Shown: positions 2,943 through 53,915, numbered from the stretch's first letter. The stretch is 64,000 nucleotides of DNA from an uncultured Ruminococcus sp. (GCA_902800005.1 CADCCP010000004.1:3773-67772); one strand, 5' to 3'. The notes: generated from the sequence alone by a model not told the origin. Numbers and translations: made by a program.

Positions 2943-3002
2943 ATACTACACGATTATAACACAAACTATTTTATATAAGCAAGTCACTTATGAAATTTAA
3001 CA

Positions 3003-3103: not shown

Positions 3104-3122
3104 TAAACGGAGATGATGTTTT

Positions 3123-4076: not shown

Positions 4077-4087
4077 CCGTTTTGCTG

Positions 4088-5866
4088 TTAGTAGGATTTA
4101 AAATATCTTGTTTTTGCCGAAAGAAAATATTTTGGAATGATCTCTACACTTACATTTTCATTTTTGTCTTTCACTTCAAACGAATATTCAAATGTTTTAT
4201 TATCTCCCAAAGTTACCTGTTCCACGTTATCGGAAACATATTCCCCTCTGCTGTCTTTGATGTCATATACAAAATACCCCGTCTTTTCGGAAATTTCGGG
4301 AATATTAAGTTTACAGTTCATAAATACTTTTAATTCCATATAATGACGACCGTAACTTTCCATTTCCGAATAACCCTTTGATGTACTGAATGTCAAATTT
4401 TCTTTTGAAACTTCCGTACCGTCAATACAGTAAGATACAGGCTGATAAACACCGTAATTTTGCGTTTCCAAAATACCCGTTCCGTTGATAATAAACACAT
4501 CTTTGCTGTAAACATTTCCGTTTTCCGTGACGATTTCTTCCAGCGACACCATAAACGGCTTTTTGAGATCGGAAGTTATTTTAACTTGATAAGTATTCCC
4601 GACTTTTTCAGGCTCACTTATTTCAATAACAGGTTCATTTTCATCAACATCCGAATTTTTCGGATAAAGCAGTTCTTTCTCTATGATATTGCCGTTTTCG
4701 TCCTGCTTGAAATAAATGATACAATGACTGTCATCGGAACATGAAATTGTTTGATATTTATCCGGTTTGAAATTATGATGCCGTGTATTGATATAATCCG
4801 AATAATCGGCTGAATGTATCAGTTTAAAACCATTAATAATTTCATAAAAATCGTCATTTATGTCAATGATTTTTTTTGCTTGTTCAAGAGTCATTTTCGG
4901 CGGTACTTCATACGCCATTTTTATCGGTATATATCCTATCACATTCATATCAAATTCCACTTTGTCATCTTTCGCTTCATGCTCATCAGAGCTTGCATAA
5001 ATATAACTGCTATTCCCATAATTCCATATCCTTGAAAAAACGTATTTTGATTTATCCGATTTTTCCCCATTTATGATTTCCCGATAACCGTAAAGCAAAT
5101 AACCTTGCTGTTTACTGTCATCTTTCAAACTGATTTCTTCACTGCCCGAAAAAATATAATATGTTTTTCGTGCCATGCTGTCGAATGAACTTGATTGACT
5201 GACTTCAAGCGTTTCCTTAACTTTATAGTCATCTTCCGTCATGGATTCCGCTTCAATAAAAAATTTCGGAATGATTTTCAATTCAAATTCATCATTTTCA
5301 TCGCACTGTCCTAAATAATGACTGCCCGAACCTTTCCCGTCAACAACGGCAGTAATTTGCATAAGTTTATTGTCACCATTTTGAACATAGTATGCAAGCA
5401 ATCCGTTTTTATTTATATCCGTTTCAAAATCAAAATAAGCCCTTGCATAATATTTATCACGATTTTTCTCTTTTTTGTATTCCACATCACAGCTTTTCAA
5501 ATTGCTTTCGGAAACACTCTCCCCTATAAAGTAATGTTCGGGAGAGTAAACATCATAACCCGATTCGATTGCCTCGCCGTTTTCCATGAAAACATAAACT
5601 TCATTATATGCGTCCATGTAAGCGGATGTTGCACTGCACATCACTAAAAACGGCTCTTTATATTCCGATGTGAATTTAACGGCATTTTTCCCATTGGCAG
5701 CAACTATATATTCTGTATTGATTTTTACGTCGGGAAAATCTTTCTTTACACTGACCTCCGATACAACAATATTTTCGGGCATTGATGAGATCTCCGTATT
5801 TTCTCCGCATGAAACAAGCACAACTGCACTTACTGCCAACATCATACACAATATTCTTTTCAGCAT
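4088..5866 (-). CDS. lipoprotein of unknown function with internally duplicated terminal modules
   Basis: Signal peptide plus lipobox (AVVLVSCGEN) and a GGGGGAG RBS. No recognisable catalytic motif. Confidence 0.7.
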   Translation of the reverse strand: MLKRILCMMLAVSAVVLVSCGENTEISSMPENIVVSEVSVKKDFPDVKINTEYIVAANGKNAVKFTSEYKEPFLVMCSATSAYMDAYNEVYVFMENGEAIESGYDVYSPEHYFIGESVSESNLKSCDVEYKKEKNRDKYYARAYFDFETDINKNGLLAYYVQNGDNKLMQITAVVDGKGSGSHYLGQCDENDEFELKIIPKFFIEAESMTEDDYKVKETLEVSQSSSFDSMARKTYYIFSGSEEISLKDDSKQQGYLLYGYREIINGEKSDKSKYVFSRIWNYGNSSYIYASSDEHEAKDDKVEFDMNVIGYIPIKMAYEVPPKMTLEQAKKIIDINDDFYEIINGFKLIHSADYSDYINTRHHNFKPDKYQTISCSDDSHCIIYFKQDENGNIIEKELLYPKNSDVDENEPVIEISEPEKVGNTYQVKITSDLKKPFMVSLEEIVTENGNVYSKDVFIINGTGILETQNYGVYQPVSYCIDGTEVSKENLTFSTSKGYSEMESYGRHYMELKVFMNCKLNIPEISEKTGYFVYDIKDSRGEYVSDNVEQVTLGDNKTFEYSFEVKDKNENVSVEIIPKYFLSAKTRYFKSY

Positions 5867-5943
5867 ATTATCTCCCCCAGTTTTTAAAAAAGTGCCAGCC
5901 GAAAAAATATCCGACTGACACTCTAAAAAAATTGCTAATTGAA

Positions 5944-6807
5944 TTATGCCTTGTTAACTGAACCGAAAAGTTCCATTTTTTCTTTAACGGTAGCCTTGAT
6001 AGCTTCAAAGCCCGGTGCAAGAAGTTTTCTGGGATCAAATCCCTTGCCGTCAAGGTCTTTACCGGCTTCGATATACTTTCTTGTAGCTTCCTGGAATGAC
6101 AACTGACACTCTGTATTTACGTTTATCTTTGATACGCCGAGTTCGATAGCTTTCTTTATCATATCGGCAGGGATACCTGTACCGCCGTGAAGAACGAGAG
6201 GCATTTCACCTGTTTTTTCCTGAATAGCTGCGAGAGTTTCAAAGCTGAGTCCTTTCCAGTTAGCCGGATATTTGCCGTGAATGTTGCCGATACCTGCTGC
6301 AAGCATATCTACGCCCAGATCAGCTATTGTCTTGCACTCATCGGGATCTGCACATTCGCCCATGCCTACAACGCCGTCTTCTTCACCGCCGATAGAACCT
6401 ACTTCACACTCTATTGACAATCCGAGATTGTGTGCAACATTAACGAGTTCCTTTGATTTAGCGAGGTTTTCTTCAAACGGATAATGTGAACCGTCAAACA
6501 TGATGGAAGTAAAGCCTGCTTTTACGCACTTGTAGCAGCCTTCGTATGTACCGTGGTCAAGGTGGAGTGCAACGGGAACAGTAATTCCAAGAGATTCGTC
6601 CATAGCCTTTACCATAGCGGCAACTGTCTTAAAGCCTGTCATGTACTTGCCTGCACCCTCAGATACACCGAGAATAACAGGTGAATTGAGTTCCTGTGCA
6701 GTGAGAAGGATAGCCTTTGTCCATTCAAGGTTATTGATGTTGAACTGACCTACTGCATAATGACCTGCCTTTGCCTTTTTGAGCATTTCTGCTGCATTTA
6801 CCAACAT
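5944..6807 (-). CDS. fba: class II fructose-1,6-bisphosphate aldolase
   Basis: 287 aa with LHLDHG, GxxSIMFDGS and LVLHGGTG motifs of class II FBA. Confidence 0.92.
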   Translation of the reverse strand: MLVNAAEMLKKAKAGHYAVGQFNINNLEWTKAILLTAQELNSPVILGVSEGAGKYMTGFKTVAAMVKAMDESLGITVPVALHLDHGTYEGCYKCVKAGFTSIMFDGSHYPFEENLAKSKELVNVAHNLGLSIECEVGSIGGEEDGVVGMGECADPDECKTIADLGVDMLAAGIGNIHGKYPANWKGLSFETLAAIQEKTGEMPLVLHGGTGIPADMIKKAIELGVSKINVNTECQLSFQEATRKYIEAGKDLDGKGFDPRKLLAPGFEAIKATVKEKMELFGSVNKA

Positions 6808-7015
6808 TGTAAATCACTCTCCATGAATTTTTTTCCGTACACGAAATTATTCGCATACTTTTTATTTATTATACTATAAATAAAACAAAATTAAAAGCAA
6901 AATTTAAAAATTTTTTTAATTTTTTTGTAAATTTTACATATATATTGACTTTTGCCGAAAAAAGCGGTATTTTATATATGTTAATTTTTTAGAAAAAAGA
7001 TAAGGGGATATTCAA

Positions 7016-8212
7016 ATGCTTACATTGGATAAAGTTTATCATGCATCATACGTTCTGAAAGACGTTATCAGACCGACAGACATGATAAAAGCTACTAATC
7101 TTGCAGACGACTTTGAACTGTATCTCAAAACCGAGAACTTGCAGATAACAGGTGCTTTCAAAGCAAGAGGTGCTTATTACAAAATTTCACAGCTCTCCGA
7201 TGAGGAACGTGCAAGAGGTGTTATTGCCTGCTCTGCAGGAAATCATGCACAGGGCGTTGCACTTGCCGCTTCAAAATACGGCATCAAATCTCTGATATGT
7301 ATGCCCGACTCTGCACCTATCTCAAAAGTTGAGGCTACCAAAAGTTACGGTGCAGAAGTATGTCTTGTAGAAGGCACTTATGACGATGCACATGATAAAG
7401 CTGTTGAGCTTCAGCAAAAGACAGGTGCAACTTTTATTCACCCGTTTGACGATGAACTCGTTATTGCAGGTCAGGGTACTATCGGTCTTGAGATCCTTGA
7501 ACAGCTTGCAGACGTTGATGCCATAATCGTACCTATAGGCGGCGGCGGTTTGATAAGCGGTGTTGCATTTGCCGTAAAATCACTCAACCCGAATGTCAAA
7601 ATATACGGCGTACAGTCTGCCGGTGCCCCCTCTATGTATATATCTATGGCTCACGGTCAGATCGAAACTTTACCCGGTGTCAACACATTTGCAGACGGTA
7701 TCGCTGTAAAAACTCCCGGTGAACTCACATTTGACATTTGCAGCAAATACGTTGATGAGATAATGACCGTCACAGATGATGAAACTGCAACTGCTATTCT
7801 CTCTCTTATCGAAAAGCAAAAACTCATTTCAGAGGGTGCAGGTGCTGTATCCGTTGCGGCAGCTCTCTTTAACAAGTTCCCGCTCAAAGGTAAAAAAGTC
7901 TGCTGTCTGGTATCGGGCGGTAATATCGATGTTACCATTCTTTCAAGAGTTATTGACAGGGGCTTGCAGAAAACAGGCAGACTCGCTGAATTTACCGTTG
8001 CCCTTACGGACAAGCCAGGTGAACTCAATACCGTTTCAAGGATCATTTCCAAACTCGGTGCAAACGTCGTTGCCGTCAGCCATGACAGGGCAGACCTCAA
8101 TACAGACATAAATTCATGTTATCTTCGTCTGTCGCTTGAGACTCGCAACCACGAGCATATACAGAAAATAAAGGACGAACTCGCCAGACACGGCTACAAG
8201 ATCGTTCAATAA
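7016..8212 (+). CDS. ilvA: threonine ammonia-lyase (threonine dehydratase) with C-terminal ACT-like domain
   Basis: PLP lysine motif TGAFKARGA, SAGNHAQGVA and the GGGGL glycine loop; 398 aa. Followed by ridA. Confidence 0.85.
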   Translation: MLTLDKVYHASYVLKDVIRPTDMIKATNLADDFELYLKTENLQITGAFKARGAYYKISQLSDEERARGVIACSAGNHAQGVALAASKYGIKSLICMPDSAPISKVEATKSYGAEVCLVEGTYDDAHDKAVELQQKTGATFIHPFDDELVIAGQGTIGLEILEQLADVDAIIVPIGGGGLISGVAFAVKSLNPNVKIYGVQSAGAPSMYISMAHGQIETLPGVNTFADGIAVKTPGELTFDICSKYVDEIMTVTDDETATAILSLIEKQKLISEGAGAVSVAAALFNKFPLKGKKVCCLVSGGNIDVTILSRVIDRGLQKTGRLAEFTVALTDKPGELNTVSRIISKLGANVVAVSHDRADLNTDINSCYLRLSLETRNHEHIQKIKDELARHGYKIVQ

Positions 8213-8214
8213 AA

Positions 8215-8318
8215 AGTGTGGAGAGTGAAGAGTGGAGAGTGGAGTTTATTTAAAACCGATTTTTTCTTGAAATTCGGGTTAAAAACCGCTCCACTCTCCA
8301 CTCTCAACACTCCACTCT
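8215..8318 (+). repeat. heptad-periodic inverted repeat (GAGTGGA type) between ilvA and ridA
   Basis: Left arm is four 7-mers GTGTGGA GAGTGAA GAGTGGA GAGTGGA (8216-8243). Right arm is TCCACTC TCCACTC TCAACAC TCCACTC (8290-8317). The inner 15 bp pair perfectly, with a 45-nt spacer. Confidence 0.85.
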
Positions 8319-8339
8319 AAACGGAAAGGAAGTATTTTT

Positions 8340-8714
8340 ATGTCAGAAGTAGTTTACACAAAAAACGCCCCCGATGCAATAGGTCCTTATTCACAGGCTA
8401 TCAAAACTAACGGACTTGTTTTTACATCAGGACAAATTGCCATCAATCCCGCAACAGGAAATGTTGAATCCGACACTATCGAGGGACAAACAGAACAGGT
8501 CATGCAGAATCTCAAAAATCTGCTTGAAGCATCAGGTTCATCTCTTGAAAAGGCTGTAAAAACAGTTTGTTTCCTTGCAGATATGAATGACTTCGGAGCT
8601 TTCAATGCTATCTATGGAAAGTACTTTACAGGCAAACCTGCACGTTCATGTGTAGCTGTCAAGACTCTCCCCAAAAATGTCCTCTGTGAAGTTGAAGTTA
8701 TCGCCGAGTGCTGA
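8340..8714 (+). CDS. ridA: RidA family reactive-intermediate (enamine/imine) deaminase
   Basis: 124 aa YjgF/RidA pattern (APDAIGPYSQA, ARSCVAV, VEVIAE), located downstream of threonine dehydratase. Confidence 0.85.
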   Translation: MSEVVYTKNAPDAIGPYSQAIKTNGLVFTSGQIAINPATGNVESDTIEGQTEQVMQNLKNLLEASGSSLEKAVKTVCFLADMNDFGAFNAIYGKYFTGKPARSCVAVKTLPKNVLCEVEVIAEC

Positions 8715-8794
8715 AAACAATAATTTCAAAATGCCTTGCCGAGTGATTTCGGCATGGCATTTTTTATAAACTCATCAAATAAGGAGATATTTCC

Positions 8795-9487
8795 ATGCTT
8801 AAATTTTTCGGAAACGGCTCTGCTTTTGCAGACACCAACACCTGTGCATACTTCATACAAAACCATGACATGATCATTATCGATTTTTCTCAAAGTGCTT
8901 TCCCGAAATTCAGAAACCTTGATTTTTCGGACATAAGTAAAATATACATACTCGTTACACACACTCACGGCGACCATATAAGCGGTATCGGTACACTTAT
9001 ACATTATGCGTATTTCATTTTAAAAATCCCCGTTACCGTTGTAGCACCGTGCAGTGATGTTGCAGATGAATTAAAAGAACTTTTAAATCGCATTGAGGGG
9101 TGTATTCCTGACGGTTATAAGGTAATTTTGCCCTATGAAGTCAATCAAAATTGGTTTACTGCGGCAATACCTACGGAACATTCCGAACAACATATCAAAA
9201 AATGTTTCGGATATGCCCTTTCCATCAATTCATCTTCGGTCATTTATACAGGCGATACAAAAATATTATCCCCCTATCTCCCATATCTTCACGGCAATAA
9301 TACATATCTTTACACCGAAATATCCGCCCATAACAGCGGCGTACATCTTTACATAAATGACTTTTTTGACACTTTAAATGAACTTTGTCAAAACGGCATT
9401 AAGGTATATCTTATGCACATTGACGACAAAGCCGCCATTGAACAGAAAATTAAAGGTACTGCTCTTAAAATCGTCGATACAATATAA
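8795..9487 (+). CDS. MBL-fold metallo-hydrolase
   Basis: HTHGDH (HxHxDH) motif; 230 aa. Confidence 0.7.
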   Translation: MLKFFGNGSAFADTNTCAYFIQNHDMIIIDFSQSAFPKFRNLDFSDISKIYILVTHTHGDHISGIGTLIHYAYFILKIPVTVVAPCSDVADELKELLNRIEGCIPDGYKVILPYEVNQNWFTAAIPTEHSEQHIKKCFGYALSINSSSVIYTGDTKILSPYLPYLHGNNTYLYTEISAHNSGVHLYINDFFDTLNELCQNGIKVYLMHIDDKAAIEQKIKGTALKIVDTI

Positions 9488-9491
9488 AAAA

Positions 9492-9528
9492 CGGTCTGTA
9501 TGACATTCCATACAGACCGCTGTTTTTA
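9492..9528 (+). terminator. rho-independent terminator
   Basis: CGGTCTGTATG / CATACAGACCG stem (11 bp) followed by CTGTTTTTA. Confidence 0.8.
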
Positions 9529-9567
9529 TTTGATGTTTTTTTCGCAAACTTTGAGTTCCGACTTAAT

Positions 9568-9604
9568 TGTACATTGCACATTGCACATTGTACATTGCAC
9601 ATTG
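9568..9604. repeat. tandem heptamer array (TACATTG/CACATTG x5)
   Basis: Reads tgTACATTGCACATTGCACATTGTACATTGCACATTG, with no partner arm nearby. It lies between convergent genes. The reverse complement CAATGTG is the unit of the tyrS-leader hairpin. Confidence 0.8.
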
Positions 9605-9612
9605 AATTAGAA

Positions 9613-9864
9613 TTACTCTTCTTTTTTGCCGAACATATTGAAACGGAAAAGTTTTGATTCATCTTCGGAGTTCTGGCACTCAAGATGTGCATTCATGATC
9701 TTGCCGCCTTCAATGAGTTTTGCAAGTCCGATAAGTTGGCAGAGCTTGCTTTTGAGGTTAAGACGGTCGCCTTCGCCCGTTACGAGAAATACATCACCCT
9801 CGCAAGTGTCCACTACTGACAAAAATTCCTGTACATCTACCTTATGAAGTTCGATTGAAGCCAT
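9613..9864 (-). CDS. small HPr-like protein (tentative)
   Basis: 83 aa starting at MASIELHK, with an AAGGAGG RBS 8 nt upstream. LNLKSKLCQLIGLA resembles the HPr Ser46 region (VNLKSIMGVMSLGI), and a His lies 29 residues upstream (28 in HPr). The ORF-track start at 9909 lacks an RBS. Confidence 0.45.
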   Translation of the reverse strand: MASIELHKVDVQEFLSVVDTCEGDVFLVTGEGDRLNLKSKLCQLIGLAKLIEGGKIMNAHLECQNSEDESKLFRFNMFGKKEE

Positions 9865-9937
9865 ATTTAAAACCTCCTTAAAATTATATCCGTTGATTTC
9901 TTTCTTCAACAGGTTTTTTTCATCACCTGTTGCCTTT

Positions 9938-9965
9938 ATTATAACATATTTTTCCGACTTGTCAA
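9938..9965 (-). promoter_or_regulatory. consensus sigma-70 promoter of the HPr-like gene
   Basis: On the - strand: TTGACA, 16 nt ending in TGt, then TATAAT. Confidence 0.6.
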
Positions 9966-10036
9966 CACTTTTTCAAAAATATTTTGTGAATCATATCAAA
10001 ACAATTCGGTTGAAATTTGTGCAAATTCACTCAATT

Positions 10037-10708
10037 TCAGACATATATTTCTCCATCAGAAATTTTCACTTGTCTTTCAGCCATATCTGCAACGCTTTTA
10101 TCATGCGTTATCAACACGACTGTCGCACCGTTTTTATGCAGGCTTTTCAGAATATCCATTATTTCATTCCCCGAATTCATATCAAGATTTCCCGTCGGTT
10201 CGTCTGCAAGGATAATTTCGGGTTCTGCCGCAACTGCCCTTGCAATAGCAACTCTTTGTTGCTGACCGCCCGACAGTTCACAAGGCTTATGAGAAAGCCT
10301 TTTTTTCAATCCGACCTTTTCAAGAGAATCCAGTGCCATTTGTCGTCGGGCTGATCTTTTGATACCCCTGTATATCAGAGGCAATTCCACGTTTTCCAGT
10401 GCATTAAGTGTCGGTATCAAATTGAAATTCTGAAAAATAAAGCCTATCACTTGATTTCTGACAAATGACAATTCCCTTTCGGTCATTCTTGAAACATCTA
10501 TGCCGTCAAGGATATATTCACCGCTCGTAACCGTATCAAGACAGCCGAGTATATTCATCAAAGTAGACTTTCCCGAACCCGACTGTCCTGTTATTGAAAC
10601 AAACTCTCCCCTGCCTATCTCCAAACCGATATTATTCAACGCATGAACTATATTATTTTTTGAAACATACGTCTTGCAAACGTCCGATAAAACTATCACA
10701 TTTTCCAT
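10037..10708 (-). CDS. ABC transporter ATP-binding protein (MacB/LolD/FtsE-like)
   Basis: GQSGSGKST, LSGGQQQRVAIARA and ILADEPTGNLD motifs; 223 aa. No FtsX-type permease gene is adjacent. Confidence 0.85.
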   Translation of the reverse strand: MENVIVLSDVCKTYVSKNNIVHALNNIGLEIGRGEFVSITGQSGSGKSTLMNILGCLDTVTSGEYILDGIDVSRMTERELSFVRNQVIGFIFQNFNLIPTLNALENVELPLIYRGIKRSARRQMALDSLEKVGLKKRLSHKPCELSGGQQQRVAIARAVAAEPEIILADEPTGNLDMNSGNEIMDILKSLHKNGATVVLITHDKSVADMAERQVKISDGEIYV

Positions 10709-10753
10709 GTCAAAACCACCTCAATGTTATTTTGCCATGAACACATGATTTTA

Positions 10754-10969
10754 TCAGATATTTTCAAGAAGTTCCTTCAGTTTTGCCACCTCATCACTGT
10801 TTAATGAAGTGCCTTTGCCCATTTTTTCATGGTTAGGCGACCATTCTCTTATATCCAATTTTGCCGCTGCACCGTTCCACGATACCATATTTACTTCTTT
10901 TCTCCAACCGCTTTTACTTTCGGAAAGAACTCCTATTTCTTTTTCTATCTCATATCTAAAATCTGCCAT
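10754..10969 (-). CDS. YdbC/PC4-like small ssDNA-binding-fold protein (tentative)
   Basis: 71 aa from ATG (MADFRYEIEKEIGVL...WRKEVNMVSWNG...LDIREW), with a GGGGG RBS 9-10 nt upstream. The family call comes from remembered YdbC-like sequences. Confidence 0.5.
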   Translation of the reverse strand: MADFRYEIEKEIGVLSESKSGWRKEVNMVSWNGAAAKLDIREWSPNHEKMGKGTSLNSDEVAKLKELLENI

Positions 10970-10984
10970 TTCATTCACCCCCTT

Positions 10985-12586
10985 TCATTCTGCATTGTTC
11001 AGCAGATTCCTGCACATCAGGAATATCAGAAATGATATTATCATGTTCCATATAAATACAGGCAATCCCATCATTGTTGCAGCTATGATCGAAAGTTCGC
11101 CTGCATTTGAAAGACTCATAAGTCCCAGCATTATTCCGGGTATCATCAATAAAAATATCAATGACATATAAAAAGTGATAAATACACCTCTGTTGCCGTT
11201 CATGCCGACTATCCTTTGTGCAAGGACATTTGCCGCTATATACACGCATCCGAAACTGCCGTATACAAGTATACTTGTCACAATATCGGGTATTTGTCCT
11301 CCGACTATCAGTGCAAGTACCAGATAGGCTATCGTACCATCAGTGAAAGGCTTTATTATACTCGTTGCAGATGCCATTATCAGTTTTTTGACGGGACTGT
11401 CGGGAATTAAAAATATATACGGCTTTGACAATTCTTTCACCCAATCTCCTGCCGCACTGAAAAAGAATTGAAGATAGGAACATATAATTGTCGTTCCAAG
11501 ATAAATTACAGTTGTTCTGTAAATGCCGTCCATTATCTGATCTATAACTAATCCCGTTACAAGTGCCACTCCCAAAAGTACCGCTGTGCTGATATTCAAA
11601 AAAATAAATCTTGAACGTCTTTCGCCTTCTTTGAGATGTTTATAGAATATGGCATTTGCACCGCTGCCTTTTTTGATGCCGATATTGGAATCTTTCAGTT
11701 TCTGCGAACTCATGCCAAAACTTTCACCCATATTGCCTGTTCTGAGGGATTCCCTGAAAGCGTAATTGCTTTCAGCCTGTCCGAGAACATCTTCATAGTA
11801 ATCAAGTTTTGTATAGACAAATACAAGTATGCAGGCTATCAATGACACGAAAAGCAATATCCCGTATACAGCGATATTCGCATAATTGCCGTCAATGATA
11901 CCGAATATAACTCCGTGTATCCAGCCTATCGGACTGTATTCAAGCATGGGCTGTGAAACGGCATAAAGCAGATTTTCAACGGTCATTCCGTTGGTGAACA
12001 TATATATACCCACAACTGCCAACGGATATACAGGTATCGCATAAATTATATATTTCATGACTTTTGCACGTTTCTGATGACCGCTTGACAAACAGAATAT
12101 CATCAATGTCATCATCTGTACAAGAATGAACATGACAATTATGCCGAGTATCAGCCATACAGCATCTTCCGCCGTAAGCCTGAATATATTCATAGCCATA
12201 CCGCCGTATGCCGAAAAACATATAGCAAGAAACAGCATTGAAGCAAGCTGTCTGCCGACACCGTATATGAGTATTTTTTTCTCCGACATGGGTGCAACGA
12301 ATATATTATTGACATCACTCATTGAAAAAAAACTTGTTCCCGAACTCAAGCCTTTGAGCATAATGGGAATACTTATAAAATGCAGGAGTGCCAAGTAACC
12401 GCCGTATAATGCCCTTGTATCCTTTTCAACGCTGTAGGTTGCGGTACTGTTGGCATATCCCATTAAAACGGCACTGATGATACTTAAAAAGAAAATACCG
12501 TACATCACCAACATCAAAGGATGTCTGAAAGCGTCTATGACCGCATTTTTGACGGTCTTTCGGACTATGTAGAAAATAGCTCCCAT
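10985..12586 (-). CDS. polytopic membrane protein, putative ABC-exporter permease
   Basis: 533 aa with at least 10 predicted TM helices. It starts 4 nt after the stop of the upstream ABC ATPase and has a GGGGAAG RBS. Confidence 0.7.
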   Translation of the reverse strand: MGAIFYIVRKTVKNAVIDAFRHPLMLVMYGIFFLSIISAVLMGYANSTATYSVEKDTRALYGGYLALLHFISIPIMLKGLSSGTSFFSMSDVNNIFVAPMSEKKILIYGVGRQLASMLFLAICFSAYGGMAMNIFRLTAEDAVWLILGIIVMFILVQMMTLMIFCLSSGHQKRAKVMKYIIYAIPVYPLAVVGIYMFTNGMTVENLLYAVSQPMLEYSPIGWIHGVIFGIIDGNYANIAVYGILLFVSLIACILVFVYTKLDYYEDVLGQAESNYAFRESLRTGNMGESFGMSSQKLKDSNIGIKKGSGANAIFYKHLKEGERRSRFIFLNISTAVLLGVALVTGLVIDQIMDGIYRTTVIYLGTTIICSYLQFFFSAAGDWVKELSKPYIFLIPDSPVKKLIMASATSIIKPFTDGTIAYLVLALIVGGQIPDIVTSILVYGSFGCVYIAANVLAQRIVGMNGNRGVFITFYMSLIFLLMIPGIMLGLMSLSNAGELSIIAATMMGLPVFIWNMIISFLIFLMCRNLLNNAE

Positions 12587-12589
12587 ATT

Positions 12590-13300
12590 TCACTTCCCCT
12601 TTTCCGTTATACTGAAAAACAGTTCTTCCAAATTTTCACCGCTCTGTTCAACAATTTTTCTGTCACGTTCAGCTTCGATCCTGCCGTTCATCATGATGAA
12701 AACTTTATCCCAGAATTCTTCCACGCTTTCAAGCATATGTGTACTTATTATAACAGATGTCCCGTTACCTCTCATTTCGGAAAGCATGGCTTTGAGTTCT
12801 TTGATGGCATGGGGATCAAGTCCGACAAACGGTTCGTCAAATAAAACCGCCTTTGGCTGTATCAGCAATGCACAGCAAATACTTATTTTTTGCTGCATAC
12901 CCTTTGAAAGTTCCTTTCCGAACTTGTTTCTTTTGTCGTCAAGTTCCATTCTGTTTATAAGTTTCTCTGCACGTTCTTCCCAATTTTCAAGCCTGTAAGC
13001 ACGGGCAATAAACTCCATATGTTCCCATACCGTCAGCAATTCAAACGGTGCGGGGATCTCGGGGATATATCCCAATATTCTTTTAGCGTCTGCGGATTTA
13101 TTGTTATGACCGCAGATCTCTATTTCTCCCGAAAACCTCAGCAGACCTGCAATACACTTGATAGCCGTAGATTTTCCTGCACCGTTAGGTCCTGCAAGAA
13201 CGGCTATTTCACCATCACTGACCGTAAATGACAAATTATCATTTGCCTTGAAACGCCCGTATTTTTTAGTAAGATGTGATACATTTATCATGCCTTTCAC
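12590..13300 (-). CDS. ABC transporter ATP-binding protein
   Basis: GPNGAGKST, LSKGMQQK and LFDEPFVGLD motifs; 236 aa. Confidence 0.85.
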   Translation of the reverse strand: MKGMINVSHLTKKYGRFKANDNLSFTVSDGEIAVLAGPNGAGKSTAIKCIAGLLRFSGEIEICGHNNKSADAKRILGYIPEIPAPFELLTVWEHMEFIARAYRLENWEERAEKLINRMELDDKRNKFGKELSKGMQQKISICCALLIQPKAVLFDEPFVGLDPHAIKELKAMLSEMRGNGTSVIISTHMLESVEEFWDKVFIMMNGRIEAERDRKIVEQSGENLEELFFSITEKGK

Positions 13301-47418: not shown

Positions 47419-48579
47419 ATGAAAGTGTCGTCACTGATATGTGAATACAATCCTTTTCACAACGGACATAAATATATGCTTGAAAAGATGCGTGAAAACG
47501 GCAGTGAATATATAGTAGCCTGCATGAGCGGAAATTTCACTCAAAGAGGAGATGTTGCGATATTTGACAAGTACAGCCGTACAAAGACTGCCCTTGAAAA
47601 CGGTGTTGATCTGGTTATAGAATTGCCCGTCACATACGCCTGTGCTACCGCAGAAAAATTTGCATTGGGTGGAGTTTATATTTTAAACTCTCTCGGCTGC
47701 GTAAATGAGATATATTTCGGAAGTGAGTGCGGTGAAATTACGGCTCTGCAAAATACCGTTGATATTCTCGGTTCAGGCAAGTTTTCCGATGGTGTAAAAA
47801 AATATCTGTCACTCGGTCAGACATTTGCAAAAGCCCGTGAAAATGCCGTCAGAGAAATTTCCGAAATATCTGCGGAAATTTTAAAAAGTCCCAACAACAT
47901 TCTTGCAACGGAGTATATCAGGGCTTTGAAAAGCCTGAACTCCCCCATTTCTCCAAGAACGATTAAGCGTGAAGGCTCGGAGCATGACAGTCTGACCGCT
48001 GTTGATAATATTGCTTCAGCAACGCTTATCCGAAAAATGATACTTGAAAACAGTTCTGACTTTCAGAAATACGTTCCTTTCACGGATATTCCCGATATAC
48101 ATTCATCTTCAAAACTTGAAACGGCTTTTTTATACAAACTCAGGATGATGTCACTTGAAGATTTTAAAAGCCTGCCCGATATAAGTGAAGGTCTTGAAAA
48201 CCGTCTTTACAGTGCCGTCAGGAACGCTGTTTCTGTGGAAGAAGTCCTGTCGCTCGTCAAAACAAAACGATATACCCTTGCAAGATCAAGACGTATTTTA
48301 TTATATGCCTTTTTGGATATAAACAAAGAAGATCAACGTATTTTACCGAAATATATAAAAATTCTGGGCTTTAATTCCAAAGGACAAAATATTCTCCGTA
48401 CCATGCGTGAAACGGCACAACTGCCTGTTGTCATGAGATATTCCGATGTAAAAAAACTCTCCCCCGATGCCAAATATATCTATTCCCTTGAAAGCCGCTG
48501 TGATGACATATATGCCCTTTCGGGTGAAAACACTCTCCCATGCGGAAGCAATATGACAAACAATATTATTTTTCCATAA
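47419..48579 (+). CDS. tmcAL: tRNA(Met) cytidine acetate ligase (YlbM/TmcAL family nucleotidyltransferase)
   Basis: EYNPFHNGHKYM N-terminal HxGH motif, about 386 aa, AAGGAG RBS. Confidence 0.8.
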   Translation: MKVSSLICEYNPFHNGHKYMLEKMRENGSEYIVACMSGNFTQRGDVAIFDKYSRTKTALENGVDLVIELPVTYACATAEKFALGGVYILNSLGCVNEIYFGSECGEITALQNTVDILGSGKFSDGVKKYLSLGQTFAKARENAVREISEISAEILKSPNNILATEYIRALKSLNSPISPRTIKREGSEHDSLTAVDNIASATLIRKMILENSSDFQKYVPFTDIPDIHSSSKLETAFLYKLRMMSLEDFKSLPDISEGLENRLYSAVRNAVSVEEVLSLVKTKRYTLARSRRILLYAFLDINKEDQRILPKYIKILGFNSKGQNILRTMRETAQLPVVMRYSDVKKLSPDAKYIYSLESRCDDIYALSGENTLPCGSNMTNNIIFP

Positions 48580-48582
48580 ATT

Positions 48583-49512
48583 TTAATAGATCATATATAA
48601 CATATTGATGGTCAGACCTGCCGCTGTACCAAACAAGGCAATTTTATCTCCACGTTTTACAGTTCCCTCATGTATCGCTGTATAGAGTCCCATAGGTATC
48701 GCTGCAGAGATCATATTACCCCACTCTTTCACCCTGTCAATGTATTTTTCTTTCGGAACTCCCAATCTGTCCATGATAAGCCTGAGTGCTTTGCTTGCCT
48801 GATGGGGTATGAAGAAATCTATGTCATCAATATTTGTTCCCGTTTCAGAAAGAAACTCTTCTAAAAAATCAGGTATCTTCTTTGCCGCCAACTTCAAAAC
48901 ACGTTTGCCTTTCATGTCAAAATAATAGTCCTCTTTATTTTCGTCCGTCATTTTAAAGGCAGTCATCAAGCCGCAGCCGCCCCTTATTTCCGTATCATGC
49001 ACACCTTCAGAAAATGTACACTGCTTTGAACTTATCACACCGCTTTCACCATGACAAGCACTTACAACAAATGCTGTTGCCGTGTCCGAAAAAAGTTCAT
49101 AGCTTTCTTTTTGACTCGGATTCAGAGCTGCCGAAGCCGTGTCACCCGAAAAAATAAGTATATTTTTATAATTACCGCTGTCAATGAGATATGACGACAT
49201 ATCCAAAGCCGTTATAAAGCTCGTGCATGAGGAATTGACATCAAAGGCAGGAATAGATGTACCTTTGGCAATACGTTCATGCAGGAGTGATGCATTACAC
49301 GGGATAGCCTGTAAAGGCGTAGCTGTACCGCCTATTATCAAATCTATATTTTCAATGGACAAGCCTGCATTATCAAGAGCCTCTTTTACAGCCATCTCCG
49401 CAAGGTCAAGCAGCGTCTGACCGTCTTTCATACGGTATCTTGTCTGATCTCCGAAATGTACCGTATTTTCGGGCAGTGCCGCTCCACACCCCGTTATCCT
49501 TATATTTCTCAT
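48583..49512 (-). CDS. KAS III (FabH)-like condensing enzyme
   Basis: Cys-His-Asn triad contexts NSSCTSF, IPHQAS and WGNMISAAIP; 309 aa. Last gene of the operon. Confidence 0.85.
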   Translation of the reverse strand: MRNIRITGCGAALPENTVHFGDQTRYRMKDGQTLLDLAEMAVKEALDNAGLSIENIDLIIGGTATPLQAIPCNASLLHERIAKGTSIPAFDVNSSCTSFITALDMSSYLIDSGNYKNILIFSGDTASAALNPSQKESYELFSDTATAFVVSACHGESGVISSKQCTFSEGVHDTEIRGGCGLMTAFKMTDENKEDYYFDMKGKRVLKLAAKKIPDFLEEFLSETGTNIDDIDFFIPHQASKALRLIMDRLGVPKEKYIDRVKEWGNMISAAIPMGLYTAIHEGTVKRGDKIALFGTAAGLTINMLYMIY

Positions 49513-50786
49513 ACTTTCACATCTCCCGTCCGTTCAACTCTCTTTAACTTCCTGTTCTTGTCGTATATGTATTTCTCAAAACGAATTTTAGGCAATTCAA
49601 AATGATCGTCCTCAGCCAATTTTTTAAATTCACTTGTTATCTTTTCTTTCATTTGTTCATCAACATCGGCATAAATAATTATACTTTCGTCAGCCTGCTG
49701 AACGATCCTGTAATCCCTGATGTTTCCTGCAAATAAAATGCAGCGTCTGATAAAATCGGGAAAAATTTTTACTTCCTTTTCATCTCCGTGAAAAATAAAT
49801 ATATCGTCTTCCCTGCCCTCTATTTTTTCCAACGCTGTGCAGGAGCTTCCACACGGACATTTTCCTTTTTTCTCAACGAGAACGTCATTAAGTCTGTATC
49901 TTATTATCGGCTGTGAAGTTCTCTCAAAATCCGTTATTATCGGTATAAAGCGTTTTTCATCGACATATTCCTTCTCTATGAAAACTATATCTTCATTCAG
50001 ATGTAAAGTTCCGTATTTGCACGTTGCCGCAAGACAGCCCTCTGTACATTGATATACCTGATGTATCACCGACACTCCAAATGATTTTTTTATTCTCTCT
50101 TCATCCTCTTTTTCAAGCACCTCTGCAATGGATATTACGGTTTCGGGGTGAATATCTATCTTCTTTTTGTCAATAGCGGCAGCTATCATCAACAGTGCAG
50201 ACGGCTGAGCGACCAATATATCTGCACCGTTTTTACCGAGTTTTTCAATATTTTTATCCATGTCGGCATAAATGTCGTAAAACTCAAAACGGATATTATT
50301 TGAACCGACAGACTGATATAAATTTGAGTTTGCCCGCATGAAAAATGCGACTCTGTATTTTCCGAGAATACCGTGTGAAAGGAATTTTGCCAATACAAAG
50401 CCTGCCCATTTTTCCGTTTCGGTCTTTTCAACAAGAAATGCTCCTCTGCTGTGTGACGTACCCGAACTCAAGCCGACTGTTATATTTTTCAGCTTGTCAT
50501 CAAACTCCCTTGTACGCTCCGCATTTACGGCAAATTCCAATGCTTCATCTTTATTTATGCCGACGGTGTTTATCGTGTCGAAATTCTCCATCATGATACC
50601 CTTGTCTATGATGGGGAAATCTTTCAGTCGGTGTCCCTTGTATTTACGGTAAAATTCAGACTTTTCCGTGACAAAGGCGAGATGTTTTTTTAATTTCTTC
50701 TGTTGATAGGCTTCAAGTTTCTGACGATCGGAAAAACGTCTGTGCCTGAATCGCAGATATGTAAAAAGTATCCTTAACTTACTCAT
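49509..50786 (-). CDS. PaaK / F390-synthetase / LuxE-like adenylate-forming enzyme
   Basis: GLSSGTSHSRG P-loop-like motif, about 425 aa. ATG at 50786 lies 9 nt after GGAGG and overlaps the MBL stop (ATGAGTAA). Confidence 0.7.
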   Translation of the reverse strand: MSKLRILFTYLRFRHRRFSDRQKLEAYQQKKLKKHLAFVTEKSEFYRKYKGHRLKDFPIIDKGIMMENFDTINTVGINKDEALEFAVNAERTREFDDKLKNITVGLSSGTSHSRGAFLVEKTETEKWAGFVLAKFLSHGILGKYRVAFFMRANSNLYQSVGSNNIRFEFYDIYADMDKNIEKLGKNGADILVAQPSALLMIAAAIDKKKIDIHPETVISIAEVLEKEDEERIKKSFGVSVIHQVYQCTEGCLAATCKYGTLHLNEDIVFIEKEYVDEKRFIPIITDFERTSQPIIRYRLNDVLVEKKGKCPCGSSCTALEKIEGREDDIFIFHGDEKEVKIFPDFIRRCILFAGNIRDYRIVQQADESIIIYADVDEQMKEKITSEFKKLAEDDHFELPKIRFEKYIYDKNRKLKRVERTGDVKV

Positions 50787-51591
50787 AGACTTTTTCCTCC
50801 ATGCCACCGTGAGAAAAAATTATCTTCACATCGGAATATTCAGCGGAAAATTTCTGCAAAGCCCTGACGGTTTCGGAATATTTTCTGAAATCATCCTGTA
50901 TCAGTCTCGGCAGGAAATTCATTTTCGGCACTTCTTCCATAATATCCTCTCCCCAACAAGAATCCGCTGCAAAAAATATTTTATATTCGGGCAGATATAT
51001 TCCCATCTGTCCGTTTGCATGACCGTCAAGACGTACCCCAAACACAGAACCGTCACCGAATATATCATACACTTCACTGAAAAATCCACTAAGCATATTC
51101 TTTTCACTTGTCGGCGTGACGGTCTTTACTTTTATTTTTCCGTGAGGTATCATGTTTTTAAAAGTCAGAGAAAGAGTTTTTCCCTCTTTCATCTTTGCAA
51201 GAACATCTTTTGTAGTGATAAGCCTGTAATTTGAAAATCTGTTCAATGCACCGATATGATCGGGGTGTGCATGGGAAATTATGATATATTTTATACTATC
51301 GGGTGAAATGCCGTCATTCCTCAGCCTGACATCTATTATTTCCGACGGTTCGACAAAAGTTTTATTCAGAGAATTATAAATAAACGATACAAAACCGTTT
51401 TTGTAAACAAGTTCACTGTAACCCGTGTCAAAAAGGATATTTCCGAATTTTGCATGATGTAAATATACGACGAGTGCGGGAAATTTTCGGACATCTCTTT
51501 CATGCCCGTGAAAAACTATCCCTAAATCATTCTGACAGTATCCGCAGGCATACATCTTAATTCTTGTGATTTTCTTTCCACCATTTTCCAT
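50779..51591 (-). CDS. MBL-fold metallo-hydrolase
   Basis: HAHPDH motif. ATG at 51591 lies 10 nt after GGAGGGG and overlaps the SDR gene by 35 nt. Confidence 0.75.
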   Translation of the reverse strand: MENGGKKITRIKMYACGYCQNDLGIVFHGHERDVRKFPALVVYLHHAKFGNILFDTGYSELVYKNGFVSFIYNSLNKTFVEPSEIIDVRLRNDGISPDSIKYIIISHAHPDHIGALNRFSNYRLITTKDVLAKMKEGKTLSLTFKNMIPHGKIKVKTVTPTSEKNMLSGFFSEVYDIFGDGSVFGVRLDGHANGQMGIYLPEYKIFFAADSCWGEDIMEEVPKMNFLPRLIQDDFRKYSETVRALQKFSAEYSDVKIIFSHGGMEEKVYE

Positions 51592-52552
51592 ACTCGTTTA
51601 TCCCCTCCGCAAGACTTATAACAGGCTTATAGCCTAATTTTTTCTTAGCCTTTTCGATATTCAGAGTCTGTGAAAAGGCAAGCGTACAAACTGTATATTT
51701 TGTAAGCATCGGTTCACCCTTCAATTTAAATGTCCTGTAAAACCACTCCGAAAATACAGATACACTGTAAAGCAATCCGAAGGGCAGTTTCAGATATTTG
51801 GGTTTTTCGCCTATCGAGTCAAGAAACTGTTCTAAAATAGCACGAAATTCCATAGGTTCTCCGTTGGTGATATTAAAAATTTCTCCGTTGATGTTCTGAG
51901 TGACCGCCCCAAGATAACATGCATAAGCAACATTTTTAACGTGTGTTATGTCAACAAAATTTTTTCCGCCGTTCAGCAAAGGTATGCCTATTTTGGAATT
52001 TGCACGAAGCACTCTCGGAATAAGACTTGTATCACCTATGCCGAAAAGTCCCCTCGGACGTATCACAACAGTGTAAAGTCCCTTTTTATTATACTCTTTT
52101 ATAATATCCTCTGCCATTATCTTTGACTTGATGTAATAATTGAGTTCATTTGATTTGTCAACATCATGTTCATGTATGTCAAAACGGTCTTTTTTAGCGG
52201 AATAAACGCTCGGTGAGGATATATATACAAGTCTTTTTACTCCGTTTTCAATGCACAGCTCACATATATTTTTAGTACCCTTCACATTCGCATTGTAGAA
52301 ATCCTCCCACTTGCCCCACACGGTAGACAATGCCCCTGCATGAATGACACATTCCACGCCCTCAAAATATTTTGCACATTCCGCTTTATTTGTAAAATCT
52401 CCTTTACAAAAAGTGATGCCTTTTTTTTGAAGCTCCGCACCTGTTTTTGCATTTCTGCCGAGGGCGAGAACTTCAAAACCCTTTTCTTTCAGAAGCGGTG
52501 CAAGGTATTTTCCCAAAAATCCCGTTGCACCTGTGACAAGTATTTTTTTCAT
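51557..52552 (-). CDS. NAD(P)-dependent epimerase/dehydratase, 3beta-HSD-type extended SDR
   Basis: VTGATGFLGKYL Rossmann motif and YxxxK (YIKSK); 331 aa. Confidence 0.82.
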   Translation of the reverse strand: MKKILVTGATGFLGKYLAPLLKEKGFEVLALGRNAKTGAELQKKGITFCKGDFTNKAECAKYFEGVECVIHAGALSTVWGKWEDFYNANVKGTKNICELCIENGVKRLVYISSPSVYSAKKDRFDIHEHDVDKSNELNYYIKSKIMAEDIIKEYNKKGLYTVVIRPRGLFGIGDTSLIPRVLRANSKIGIPLLNGGKNFVDITHVKNVAYACYLGAVTQNINGEIFNITNGEPMEFRAILEQFLDSIGEKPKYLKLPFGLLYSVSVFSEWFYRTFKLKGEPMLTKYTVCTLAFSQTLNIEKAKKKLGYKPVISLAEGINEYGKWWKENHKN

Positions 52553-53694
52553 TTCATATGCCCCTCCAAAATATCCATCAATTTTTCCATCTCAACCGTT
52601 GAAAATGTTTTGATAAGCTTTTCATTTCGCTGAAAAGTGTTTATTATATCCGTACTTTCTGCATAAAGTTTACCGTGACTTTTCATGCCTCCGCCGATAT
52701 TTTCAAACATCTCCGCATTAGCAGCCTGTTCACCCTGTTGGGGAACGATAAGACAAGGTACACCCGCCGCCGCTGCTTCGCAAAGGCTATTCATGCCGCC
52801 TGCCGTGATAAAGAGTTTTGCACGGCTGAGAACTGCCGTCTGATCTGCAAACTTTGTAAGCACTATATTATGCGGAAACGACATTTCAGACAATTTACCA
52901 TAGCTTGCTCCGCACGATACAAGCAATCTGTAATGTGTGCCGTCAAACTCTTTTATCAGTTTCTTGTAGAAAGACCGACTTTTATTAAAGACCGTTCCCA
53001 AAGAAACATATATGAGATTATCGCTGTCAAGCACATCTCCCCTCTTGCCCGCACGCAAACGTGATGTGCTTCCCAAAAAGAAACAGTCCTCTCCAAAATT
53101 ATCTCCATCGGGATGCATACATCTCGGAAACGTGAATATATTCAAATTTTCACGGTTCATCAAAAGAGAGAGCATATCTGTTTTATCCGTGTGATAAAGC
53201 TCTTTAAGTTTTTTTCGGGCTTTCACGATATTTCCAAAGCGGTAAAGGCGTGAAATAGTCCTTAGAGCAAAATTCCTGCTGTACACTTTAAAAGTATTTG
53301 TATCCGTACCGTAAATAGTCTGTATGGTATTCACCGATACTGCAGGGATATTTAAAAAACTCGCCGTCACCCTTCCCCACAGCGAAAGCGTATCATGCAT
53401 GATAAGCACAGGTGAAATTTCTTTTGCCTCCTCGATCAGCTTTGGCAGGGCATATAAGGAGAATTTCAGTATAAGCTCTGTCAAAGGGATAATATCACTT
53501 CCTATTGAAGTATCAAAACAAATATTTCCGCTGTCGTACTCCCTGAAAATCGCACCGCTGTTTTCGATCATCTCTTTAAATTCCGATGTGGAATATGCGG
53601 TCACTTCATGCCCCCTGTCAATAAGACTGCTCAGAACAGGCAAAGCAGGATTGATATGACCGTGAGCAGGCACTGTATAGAATATCACTTTCAT
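52549..53694 (-). CDS. GT1-family (MGT/UDP-glycosyltransferase-like) glycosyltransferase
   Basis: MKVIFYTVPAHGHINP N-terminus and a C-terminal nucleotide-sugar motif GGMNSLCEAAAAGVPCLIVPQQGEQAANA. The ORF-track TTG start at 53778 is the -35 box. Confidence 0.85.
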   Translation of the reverse strand: MKVIFYTVPAHGHINPALPVLSSLIDRGHEVTAYSTSEFKEMIENSGAIFREYDSGNICFDTSIGSDIIPLTELILKFSLYALPKLIEEAKEISPVLIMHDTLSLWGRVTASFLNIPAVSVNTIQTIYGTDTNTFKVYSRNFALRTISRLYRFGNIVKARKKLKELYHTDKTDMLSLLMNRENLNIFTFPRCMHPDGDNFGEDCFFLGSTSRLRAGKRGDVLDSDNLIYVSLGTVFNKSRSFYKKLIKEFDGTHYRLLVSCGASYGKLSEMSFPHNIVLTKFADQTAVLSRAKLFITAGGMNSLCEAAAAGVPCLIVPQQGEQAANAEMFENIGGGMKSHGKLYAESTDIINTFQRNEKLIKTFSTVEMEKLMDILEGHMK

Positions 53695-53749
53695 TTTTAT
53701 CCGCATCCTTTCCTGAAAGCTACTTTGCATTACTAAGTAGCTTGATACT

Positions 53750-53778
53750 ACTATATCATGTCTGTTTAGAATTGTCAA
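53750..53778 (-). promoter_or_regulatory. consensus promoter of the five-gene operon
   Basis: On the - strand: TTGACA (53778-73), 17 nt, TATAGT (53755-50). The leader contains a 9-bp hairpin AAGCTACTT/AAGTAGCTT (53716-53744) just before the RBS. Confidence 0.65.
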
Positions 53779-53915
53779 TTATTTTTTTACATATGAACAT
53801 AAAAAATGCTATGAGAAAGATTTTTTCTCATAGCTTGTTTAGTGATTTTTCAACTTGACTTATCACGGGAAAATATTATAATAAAAATGGTAATAAAAGA
53901 ACGGAGTTGTAAAAA

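Follow-up and report, generated by a model that had tools for sequence, protein, structure and literature searches.

A widely conserved enzyme cassette in an uncultured Ruminococcus sp. that may build a glycosylated lipid-like molecule

A condensing enzyme of the 3-ketoacyl-acyl carrier protein synthase III (KAS III) type, an adenylate-forming enzyme and an OleD-type NADPH reductase occur together in the OleABCD, lipstatin (LstABCD) and nocardiolactone (NltABCD) systems. The Pseudomonas PqsA-E system likewise combines an adenylating enzyme (PqsA) and KAS III-type enzymes (PqsD and PqsBC) with a metallo-beta-lactamase (MBL)-fold hydrolase, PqsE, which releases a beta-keto acid. MxnB and CorB, which carry the same Cys-His-Asn triad as KAS III, act on two carrier-bound chains within trans-acyltransferase polyketide synthase (PKS)/nonribosomal peptide synthetase assembly lines, and in the mycolic acid system (FadD32, Pks13, CmrA and trehalose transfer) adenylation, Claisen condensation, sugar-linked release and beta-keto reduction yield a glycolipid. 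Lastly, PaaK and the PaaK-type ligases NatL2, AjiA1, ClxA and BagE act on aromatic acids; NatL2, AjiA1 and ClxA make esters or amides from acyl-AMP in CoA-free reactions. Here we describe a five-gene minus-strand cassette with parts of these kinds, found in a 64,000-nucleotide stretch of DNA (the window) from an uncultured Ruminococcus sp. (GCA_902800005.1 CADCCP010000004.1:3773-67772). In the order of transcription its genes encode a GT1 glycosyltransferase, an extended short-chain dehydrogenase/reductase (SDR), an MBL-fold hydrolase, a PaaK-like adenylase and a KAS III-like condensing enzyme (Table 1). Judged by gene content, the cassette belongs to a family of biosynthetic cassettes of the lipid type that is widespread and conserved, and on which we found no published characterisation. 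The first-pass annotation of the window had not recognised any characterised pathway here, and our literature searches, whose coverage left out most subscription journals, agree in having found no paper on the cassette.

One genome of each GTDB species was scanned with a degenerate pattern for relatives of the adenylase, and at least 480 loci encode one; 80 loci were retrieved and compared by tblastn and by clustering of all neighbouring open reading frames (ORFs). The order SDR-MBL-adenylase-KAS III is kept in every complete locus among the 80, which come from Lachnospiraceae, Ruminococcaceae, Saccharofermentans, Acetatifactor, Stomatobaculum, Saccharibacteria, Campylobacteraceae, Streptococcaceae and Aerococcaceae. 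GT1 adjoins this core in 55 of them, and in 30 the order of the window, GT1-SDR-MBL-adenylase-KAS III, is reproduced exactly. By this pattern GT1 is a lineage-specific tailoring enzyme set on a conserved four-enzyme core. Beyond the cassette genes, no family turns up in more than 10 of these loci, so the Clostridial form of the cassette has no conserved transporter, regulator or acyl carrier protein (ACP). In about 23 loci, from mouse-gut Lachnospiraceae that include the isolates Acetatifactor muris and Clostridium transplantifaecale, the SDR and MBL form a single polypeptide, and in one further arrangement (locus L043) GT1, SDR and MBL are fused into a protein of 1083 aa in which every motif is intact. 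Among the observations made here, the fusions give the strongest indication that the enzymes act on one and the same molecule. The cassette had earlier been called an orphan, which in the sense of rare is incorrect, as the four-gene core is conserved in at least five phyla; the co-occurrence of the five genes in other genomes, on which the same annotation had let its proposal stand or fall, was found in abundance.

The five enzyme-family assignments of the first-pass annotation were borne out by Pfam, NCBIfam and structure-relative searches, and the catalytic residues that it had judged intact are invariant across homologue alignments of all five proteins. The KAS III protein carries the Pfam domains ACP_syn_III and ACP_syn_III_C together with the Cys-His-Asn triad that marks the KAS III superfamily; the triad (residues in Table 1) is invariant in 73 of 73 homologues and aligns with that of MxnB. 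Its best relatives of solved structure are MxnB (9e-46) and CorB (3.6e-41), with Aquifex FabH (8e-41) about equal; in bits, MxnB reaches 160 and FabH 144, and the OleA structures (3row, 4kti, 5vxd and others) about 57-62. Matches to the curated FabH models all fall below their cut-offs (NF005541, 285 bits with a cut-off of 402; NF006829, 194.6 with 249; TIGR00747, 167 with 292), and no OleA family occurs among the 25 best NCBIfam matches, of 31 in all. An 18-residue segment is missing from 71 of the 73 cassette KAS IIIs and is kept in the homologues from B. mycoides and from the E. coli island described below; we take this segment to be residues 19-36 of E. coli FabH, with the CoA-adenine contacts presumably at Thr28, Trp32 and Arg36. 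A housekeeping FabH was ruled out as the identity of this protein by its sub-cut-off scores, its lack of the CoA site and its constant linkage to the cassette.

The adenylase is a member of TIGR02304 ("F390 synthetase-related protein"), which it matches with 503.6 bits (cut-off 251.9) over residues 10-426 and profile positions 2-426 of 430. The family name carries no function and the clade is uncharacterised. An AlphaFold2 model of the adenylase (predicted local distance difference test score, pLDDT, 82.8) has as its top matches in the Protein Data Bank (PDB) BT_0428, NatL2, PaaK1/2, AjiA1 and ClxA, each at probability 1.00, and at the level of the modelled fold the protein is a PaaK-type member of the ANL adenylate-forming enzymes. 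Its SSGTS loop (residues 107-111) and C-terminal Lys413 are invariant in 16 of 16 homologues, and its score with PF00501 is 16.7 bits, below the cut-off of 29.9. A profile search of 1.84 billion cluster representatives returned 590 clusters at E <= 1e-30, so the family is a moderately sized one. One family member from that representative search (P0317, 642 aa) has an N-terminal extension of about 200 residues and is possibly another fusion. An exact-sequence look-up gave no record for the window adenylase or for the Lactococcus protein P0137.

The SDR has the Pfam domains Epimerase and 3Beta_HSD, and its top NCBIfam families are two OleD (2-alkyl-3-oxoalkanoate reductase) equivalogs, NF042423 at 222 bits and NF042422 at 218 bits, with a cut-off of 580. 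The TGxxGxxG motif, Tyr140/Lys144 and the pair Gly32-Arg33 are invariant in 52 of 52 homologues; standing after strand beta-2, Gly32-Arg33 looks like an NADP(H) signature. The MBL protein has the Pfam domain Lactamase_B, and its metal ligands (His107, His109, Asp111, His112, His191, Asp210 and His261) are invariant in 30 of 30 homologues. In a search with its AlphaFold2 model (pLDDT 92.8) the top 26 PDB matches are all lactonases, with template modelling (TM) scores of 0.67-0.80; they include AhlX (TM 0.75-0.81 across chains and normalisations), GcL, AiiB, AiiA and 4-pyridoxolactonase. The thioesterase PqsE gives a TM score of 0.45 with the same model. Thioesterase and lactonase had both been left open for this protein, and the structure comparison favours the lactonase type and disfavours a thioesterase, whether of the PqsE or the glyoxalase II type. 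With the equivalogs for N-acyl homoserine lactone (AHL) lactonases (AiiA/AttM/AhlS) it scores 56, 46 and 27 bits, where the cut-offs are 390, 475 and 375, and it has Trp213 in place of Tyr194 of AiiA; on model and profile together it is lactonase-like, yet outside the AHL-lactonase equivalogs. The glycosyltransferase reaches 213 bits with the TIGR01426 MGT model, below the cut-off of 260, and its best relatives of solved structure are B. subtilis YjiC and the oleandomycin glycosyltransferases (OleD/OleI). Its profile scores thus make it a GT1 relative just outside the curated MGT subfamily. All 55 homologues compared keep the catalytic His13, and the GG...E..Q motif is conserved. Inactivation of the enzyme by a His-to-Ala change in its "HGG" motif was considered and ruled out, because that position is variable (Ala in 32, His in 11 and Val in 7 of the 55) and His13 is not.

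The partners of the core differ from lineage to lineage. In the Saccharibacteria-type loci the order is phosphopantetheinyl transferase (PPTase)-SDR-MBL-adenylase-KAS III-ACP-(biotin carboxyl carrier protein-biotin carboxylase-carboxyltransferase)-FabD-FabF-(GT1); one such locus adds BirA and one has a FadD-like ligase nearby, and no FabG, FabZ or FabI gene lies within their 8-kb flanks. These versions thus bring their own holo-ACP and malonyl supply in organisms where host fatty-acid synthase (FAS) may be missing, which supports the earlier suggestion that the Clostridial operon, with no ACP of its own, draws on the host FAS pool. The co-location of ACP, FabD and acetyl-CoA carboxylase (ACC) genes also argues for a malonyl-ACP-dependent condensation. 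Six of these loci (L053, L055, L051, L080, L078 and L076) are very AT-rich and encode proteins rich in Lys, Asn and Ile, and some are binned as Erysipelotrichaceae or Bacteroidaceae; near-identical arrangements assigned to different phyla suggest that some of the contigs are mis-binned.

In E. coli the core forms part of a seven-gene island that is flanked by narI and purU and encodes KAS III, SDR, MBL, a TIGR02304 adenylase, a PAP2 protein, a sterol-desaturase-family protein and an acyl-CoA desaturase. Of 5426 complete genomes, 674 (about 12%) carry it at 95-100% identity; we found no literature on this narI-purU island. One instance (L081, positions 6200-13081) is in the KE48 record NZ_CP141085.1, which is labelled a plasmid, yet carries the core chromosomal genes narGHJI, purU, rssAB, galU and hns. 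The Ralstonia core has the same PAP2, sterol-desaturase-family and acyl-CoA desaturase partners. Cores in Paracoccus and Ketogulonicigenium are accompanied by a divergent sulfotransferase and TetR, and those of Bacillus, Paenibacillus and Pontibacillus by an ATP-grasp and a GNAT-like protein. All five genes of the window operon recur in Enterococcus saccharolyticus, with a GT21 and an extra SDR besides, and Acholeplasma oculi has SDR-MBL-adenylase-KAS III-GT1. In the E. saccharolyticus locus (L089, positions 2523-12247) a classical SDR, the GT21 (ceramide-glucosyltransferase-type) and a 206-aa protein with no Pfam match precede the five genes, and a 605-aa Sulfatase-family (LtaS-like) gene follows them, which hints at membrane glycolipid or lipoteichoic acid chemistry. 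A match on a P. amygdali megaplasmid proved to be a lone adenylase separate from any core and was not used as evidence. KAS III, SDR, MBL and adenylase of the window are 34, 34, 23 and 39% identical, respectively, to those of the E. coli core, with which the SDR-MBL-adenylase adjacency is shared, and 42, 39, 32 and 49% identical to those of B. mycoides. These Proteobacterial and Bacilli cores differ from the window in that KAS III precedes the SDR, the FabH-like CoA segment is kept, and the tailoring genes are others than GT1. The interchange of O-conjugating and membrane-lipid-modifying partners around one core suggests that the core product is hydroxylated and lipid-like.

In comparison with the described systems, the cassette is a true member, among the families tested, only of the uncharacterised TIGR02304 family, as far as the curated models can tell. 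The likeness to OleA/OleC/OleD that had been pointed out for it does not amount to membership and is an analogy: the tests for OleA, OleC, OleB and the OleD equivalogs all failed. The cassette KAS III resembles FabH and MxnB and not OleA, the adenylase is of the PaaK/TIGR02304 type and not OleC, and the cassette has a lactonase-type MBL in place of OleB and, in addition, a glycosyltransferase. It is plausible that the cassette nevertheless shares lactone chemistry with the Ole, lipstatin and nocardiolactone systems. PqsD and PqsC are among the structure matches of the KAS III protein, but PqsA belongs to the classical ANL enzymes, PqsE matches the cassette MBL poorly, and Pqs has no SDR or glycosyltransferase. 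MxnB and CorB are the closest to the KAS III protein among sequences of solved structure, but their margin over FabH is small and the cassette has no PKS. The mycolic acid system follows the same logic as the cassette; the relationship in sequence is at most one of superfamilies. Pks13 is a PKS of type I, and the two also differ in taxa and in scale. NatL2, AjiA1, ClxA, BagE and PaaK have the fold and motifs of the cassette adenylase at 15-20% identity, and the latter belongs to a separate clade.

The reading that we prefer, with a probability of roughly 0.45, is that the cassette is a self-contained operon for a small lipid-like molecule, a glycosylated hydroxy-acyl product (glycolipid). From the features above we infer substrates, step order and product as follows. 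The PaaK-type adenylase would activate a carboxylic acid with ATP; KAS III would carry out a Claisen condensation with malonyl- or beta-ketoacyl-ACP from the host FAS; the OleD-like, NADPH-type SDR would turn the beta-keto group into a hydroxyl; the lactonase-type MBL, physically beside the SDR, would hydrolyse the bond, be it ester, lactone or thioester, by which the intermediate is held or cyclised; and GT1 would move a hexose from a UDP-sugar onto the hydroxyl left free (or a carboxyl). For the adenylase an early role, in starter activation, is conceivable, as is a late one, turning a released hydroxy acid into a lactone or ester as OleC does; for the MBL, lactone opening and thioester release are both conceivable. 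The closeness of GT1 to the aglycone-promiscuous YjiC/OleD enzymes appears to favour this scheme, and the idea of a small-molecule or lipid cassette ending in glycosylation, put forward in the first-pass annotation, finds support here apart from its comparison with OleA/OleC/OleD. Several points weigh against it. Every chemical step is deduced from family resemblance, and no core component reaches the curated cut-off of any characterised equivalog family. The window-type KAS III lacks the CoA-binding segment of FabH, which leaves its acyl donor uncertain. The modelled MBL resembles lactonases and not known thioesterases, and because of this resemblance a simple ACP-release role is not the most natural one for it. 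The invariant SDR-MBL-adenylase adjacency also fits other orders of steps, and together with the lactonase fold it keeps schemes centred on a lactone alive.

One such scheme makes the cassette a non-orthologous analogue of the beta-lactone route of OleABCD, lipstatin and nocardiolactone. KAS III would join two acyl chains, the SDR would reduce the 2-alkyl-3-keto acid, the adenylase would come last and, like OleC, take the beta-hydroxy acid to a lactone or ester, and the lactonase-type MBL would process the lactone, either as an OleB-like step or for self-protection. We think this unlikely, in spite of a parts list of KAS III, ANL adenylase and 3beta-HSD-type reductase, an SDR whose top two families are OleD equivalogs, an MBL that is lactonase-like, and a Proteobacterial gene order (KAS III-SDR-MBL-adenylase) colinear with condensation, reduction and activation. 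The CoA-free use of acyl-AMP by NatL2, AjiA1 and ClxA, fold relatives of the adenylase, would suit its last step as well. The KAS III protein is, however, far weaker in its match to OleA (about 61 bits) than to MxnB and FabH (144-160 bits), the adenylase with its 16.7 bits for PF00501 is not of the OleC type, and no alpha/beta-hydrolase like OleB lies in the operon or is conserved beside it. Moreover, a beta-lactone would use up the hydroxyl that GT1 or the sulfotransferase needs, and the co-located FabD and ACC indicate decarboxylative, malonyl-dependent chemistry. The kinship of KAS III to the pyrone-forming MxnB and CorB points to a different lactone, an alpha-pyrone or similar signal or antibiotic, in which an MxnB/CorB/PpyS-like KAS III would fuse two activated chains head to head with lactonisation, the SDR and lactonase-type MBL would modify or open the ring, and GT1 would glycosylate it. 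FabF in extended clusters that have no reductive FAS enzymes could be expected to give poly-beta-keto chains, which lactonise readily, and a lactonase-type MBL would also be in place; this proposal is nonetheless quite improbable, given the small margin of MxnB over an ordinary FabH such as that of Aquifex, the absence from the Clostridial operon of a PKS and of a second carrier protein, and the extra rationale needed for a lactone that is made and then hydrolysed within one operon.

The SDR-MBL-adenylase adjacency, which is invariant in all variants with KAS III either after the adenylase or before the SDR, could instead be read as the order of reactions: the SDR would oxidise a lactol (e.g., one derived from a sugar) to a lactone, the MBL would open this to an acid, and the adenylase would activate the acid, which would then prime KAS III. 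The pairing or fusion of a dehydrogenase with a lactonase is a classical motif, the SDR falls in the superfamily of nucleotide-sugar epimerases and dehydratases, and 4-pyridoxolactonase, one of the enzymes that the MBL resembles, acts downstream of a dehydrogenase in its own pathway. Gene order is a weak guide to reaction order, though, and the best families of the SDR are beta-keto-acid reductases; its invariant Arg33 and the absence of an acidic residue after beta-2 would fit NADPH and a reductive role. We regard this sequence of steps as very unlikely. Barely credible, finally, is a catabolic or detoxification module, independent of uptake and directed at an exogenous lactone or lipophilic toxin, in which GT1 would inactivate its target as Mgt/OleD do. 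The GT1 family does include macrolide-inactivating enzymes, and the MBL resembles quorum-quenching lactonases and AttM of the gamma-butyrolactone catabolic operon, but inheritance of the SDR and MBL always goes together with that of a condensing enzyme and an adenylase, some versions have the dedicated ACP, PPTase, FabD, FabF and ACC that are hallmarks of biosynthesis, and a conserved transporter or regulator is absent.

The layout of the operon was largely as first described. The ORF listing agrees on five translationally coupled minus-strand genes spanning 48583-53694, with overlaps of exactly 4, 35, 8 and 4 nt in the order of transcription, and the KAS III stop (48583-48585) is indeed 3 nt from the stop of the convergent tmcAL gene (48577-48579). 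Two starts given by automatic listing were ruled out. For GT1 the TTG at 53778 is the -35 box itself, and the accepted ATG at 53694 is backed by the start of its orthologue in the closest relative (L002); for the adenylase the GTG at 50807 has no Shine-Dalgarno sequence and homologues are 421-425 aa long, and the ATG at 50786 is backed by these lengths and by a Shine-Dalgarno sequence. A GGAGG-like Shine-Dalgarno sequence lies 7-11 nt 5' of each accepted start, and those of the four internal starts sit within the preceding gene. No convincing terminator is found inside the operon, in line with the first-pass annotation: there are nine weak terminator-like matches (5.1 +/- 2.4 in shuffled sequences) and none is strong. 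The coupling of the genes, their internal Shine-Dalgarno sequences, the single strong promoter and the lack of any strong terminator inside support a single operon on sequence grounds.

Table 1. Positions of the cassette genes and of predicted elements around them, numbered from the first nucleotide of the window
Feature	Position	Strand	Description
Putative sigma-70-type promoter	53750-53778	-	TTGACA (53778-53773), 17-nt spacer, extended -10 TGaTATAGT (hexamer 53755-53750)
Perfect stem-loop, 9 bp	53717-53743	-	Predicted 5' end of transcript, in 5' untranslated region (UTR) of ~49 nt
GT1 glycosyltransferase gene	52549-53694	-	381 aa; GT1-family (GT-B), UDP-sugar, YjiC/OleD(MGT)-like
SDR gene	51557-52552	-	331 aa; extended SDR, 3beta-HSD/OleD-like, NADP(H)-type signature
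MBL gene	50779-51591	-	270 aa; dinuclear-metal MBL-fold hydrolase, lactonase structural type
Adenylase gene	49509-50786	-	425 aa; PaaK-type ANL adenylate-forming enzyme, TIGR02304
KAS III gene	48583-49512	-	309 aa; thiolase-fold condensing enzyme, Cys96-His237-Asn266
Terminator-like hairpin, 9 pairs	48396-48420	-	Within convergent tmcAL, 3' of KAS III stop; pattern scan
Weaker terminator-like hairpin, 5 pairs	48548-48535	-	Within tmcAL; pattern scan

The near-consensus promoter reported upstream of GT1 was recovered by a consensus scan as the best minus-strand match in the region, with 11 of 12 matches and a TG before the -10 hexamer, and it presumably drives the operon. It is not conserved in L002, where the upstream neighbour is different. 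A second 11 of 12 match, TTGACA-16-TATACT, lies on the minus strand at 49157-49184 inside the KAS III coding sequence; it is probably a chance match, since the region holds 46 such matches where 20 are expected, as is typical of AT-rich DNA. The leader hairpin is real in that its 9-bp stem is present (-10.5 kcal/mol), but it is no better than chance (z = -1.65; 14 of 200 shuffles fold equally well) and is not conserved in L002. It could possibly act as a 5' stabiliser of the mRNA. A riboswitch or attenuator was ruled out, as an Rfam search of the leader region matched no family, the UTR is short, and the hairpin is neither significant nor conserved. In the divergent intergenic region a palindrome with perfect 12-bp arms, GCTATGAGAAAG-ATT-TTTTCTCATAGC, occupies 53808-53834, flanked by the cassette promoter on the minus strand and, on the plus strand, by a near-consensus promoter of trmL (53855-53882). 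In the scan it counts as a terminator-like hairpin for both directions, but an operator that binds a dimeric regulator is just as possible. At the other end, tmcAL (plus strand) and KAS III (minus strand) converge, and terminator-like hairpins for the cassette transcript occur only inside tmcAL. With 3 nt between the stops and no terminator between them, the two transcripts would overlap. The nearest strong terminator-like hairpin downstream is the one with 9 pairs, a possible end of the operon, although such matches are overall not above shuffle counts.

The cassette had also been described as an AT-rich accessory island, and this proved mistaken. Its GC content is 39.8% and that of the window 40.3%, which ranks it at the 34th percentile among segments of its own length, and in tetranucleotide distance it stands at the median; an AT-rich or foreign island is ruled out by GC content, GC at third codon positions and tetranucleotide distance. 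Its neighbours in the window are tmcAL and trmL, and the tmcAL/ackA side is common to the congeneric metagenome-assembled genome (MAG) UBA1213. In Saccharofermentans-type genomes the cassette lies between rimM and trmD. These differing housekeeping contexts indicate that the cassette moves over evolutionary time, yet it is compositionally native in this genome. In seven Saccharofermentans-type MAGs (L019, L021, L022, L024, L026, L027 and L028) it interrupts the otherwise highly conserved ffh-rpsP-KH-rimM-trmD-rplS operon and is followed by a low-complexity membrane protein that contains a zinc ribbon. A recombination breakpoint between ackA (99% amino acid identity to L002) and the cassette (74-92%) was considered and ruled out, because nucleotide identity declines smoothly, from 88% in ackA to 70-85% in the cassette, as expected of a congeneric species whose ackA is constrained.

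Taken beyond the window, the SDR-MBL-adenylase-KAS III core may represent a widespread, unrecognised lactone or hydroxy-acid pathway, a convergent counterpart of the Ole/beta-lactone systems, in which the lipid head is swapped by lineage: a glycoside in gut, rumen and oral Firmicutes, the window operon included, a sulfate in Rhodobacterales, and a phospho- or desaturated form in E. coli and Ralstonia. We offer this generalisation as a possible but somewhat doubtful one. If the inference is right, many bacteria that live with hosts use one conserved set of enzymes to make hydroxylated or lactone lipids of a hitherto unknown family; among them are Clostridia of rumen and gut, Stomatobaculum and Saccharibacteria of the mouth, Enterococcus, Acholeplasma and, by complete genomes, about one-eighth of E. 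coli. Surface and secreted glycolipids of bacteria often influence membrane properties, host immune recognition and interactions between bacteria, and a new and widespread class of them would for that reason be worth identifying; as cultured carriers exist, the question is directly testable. For enzymology, the pathway would provide the first function for TIGR02304, a lactonase-type MBL in biosynthesis and a natural SDR::MBL fusion.

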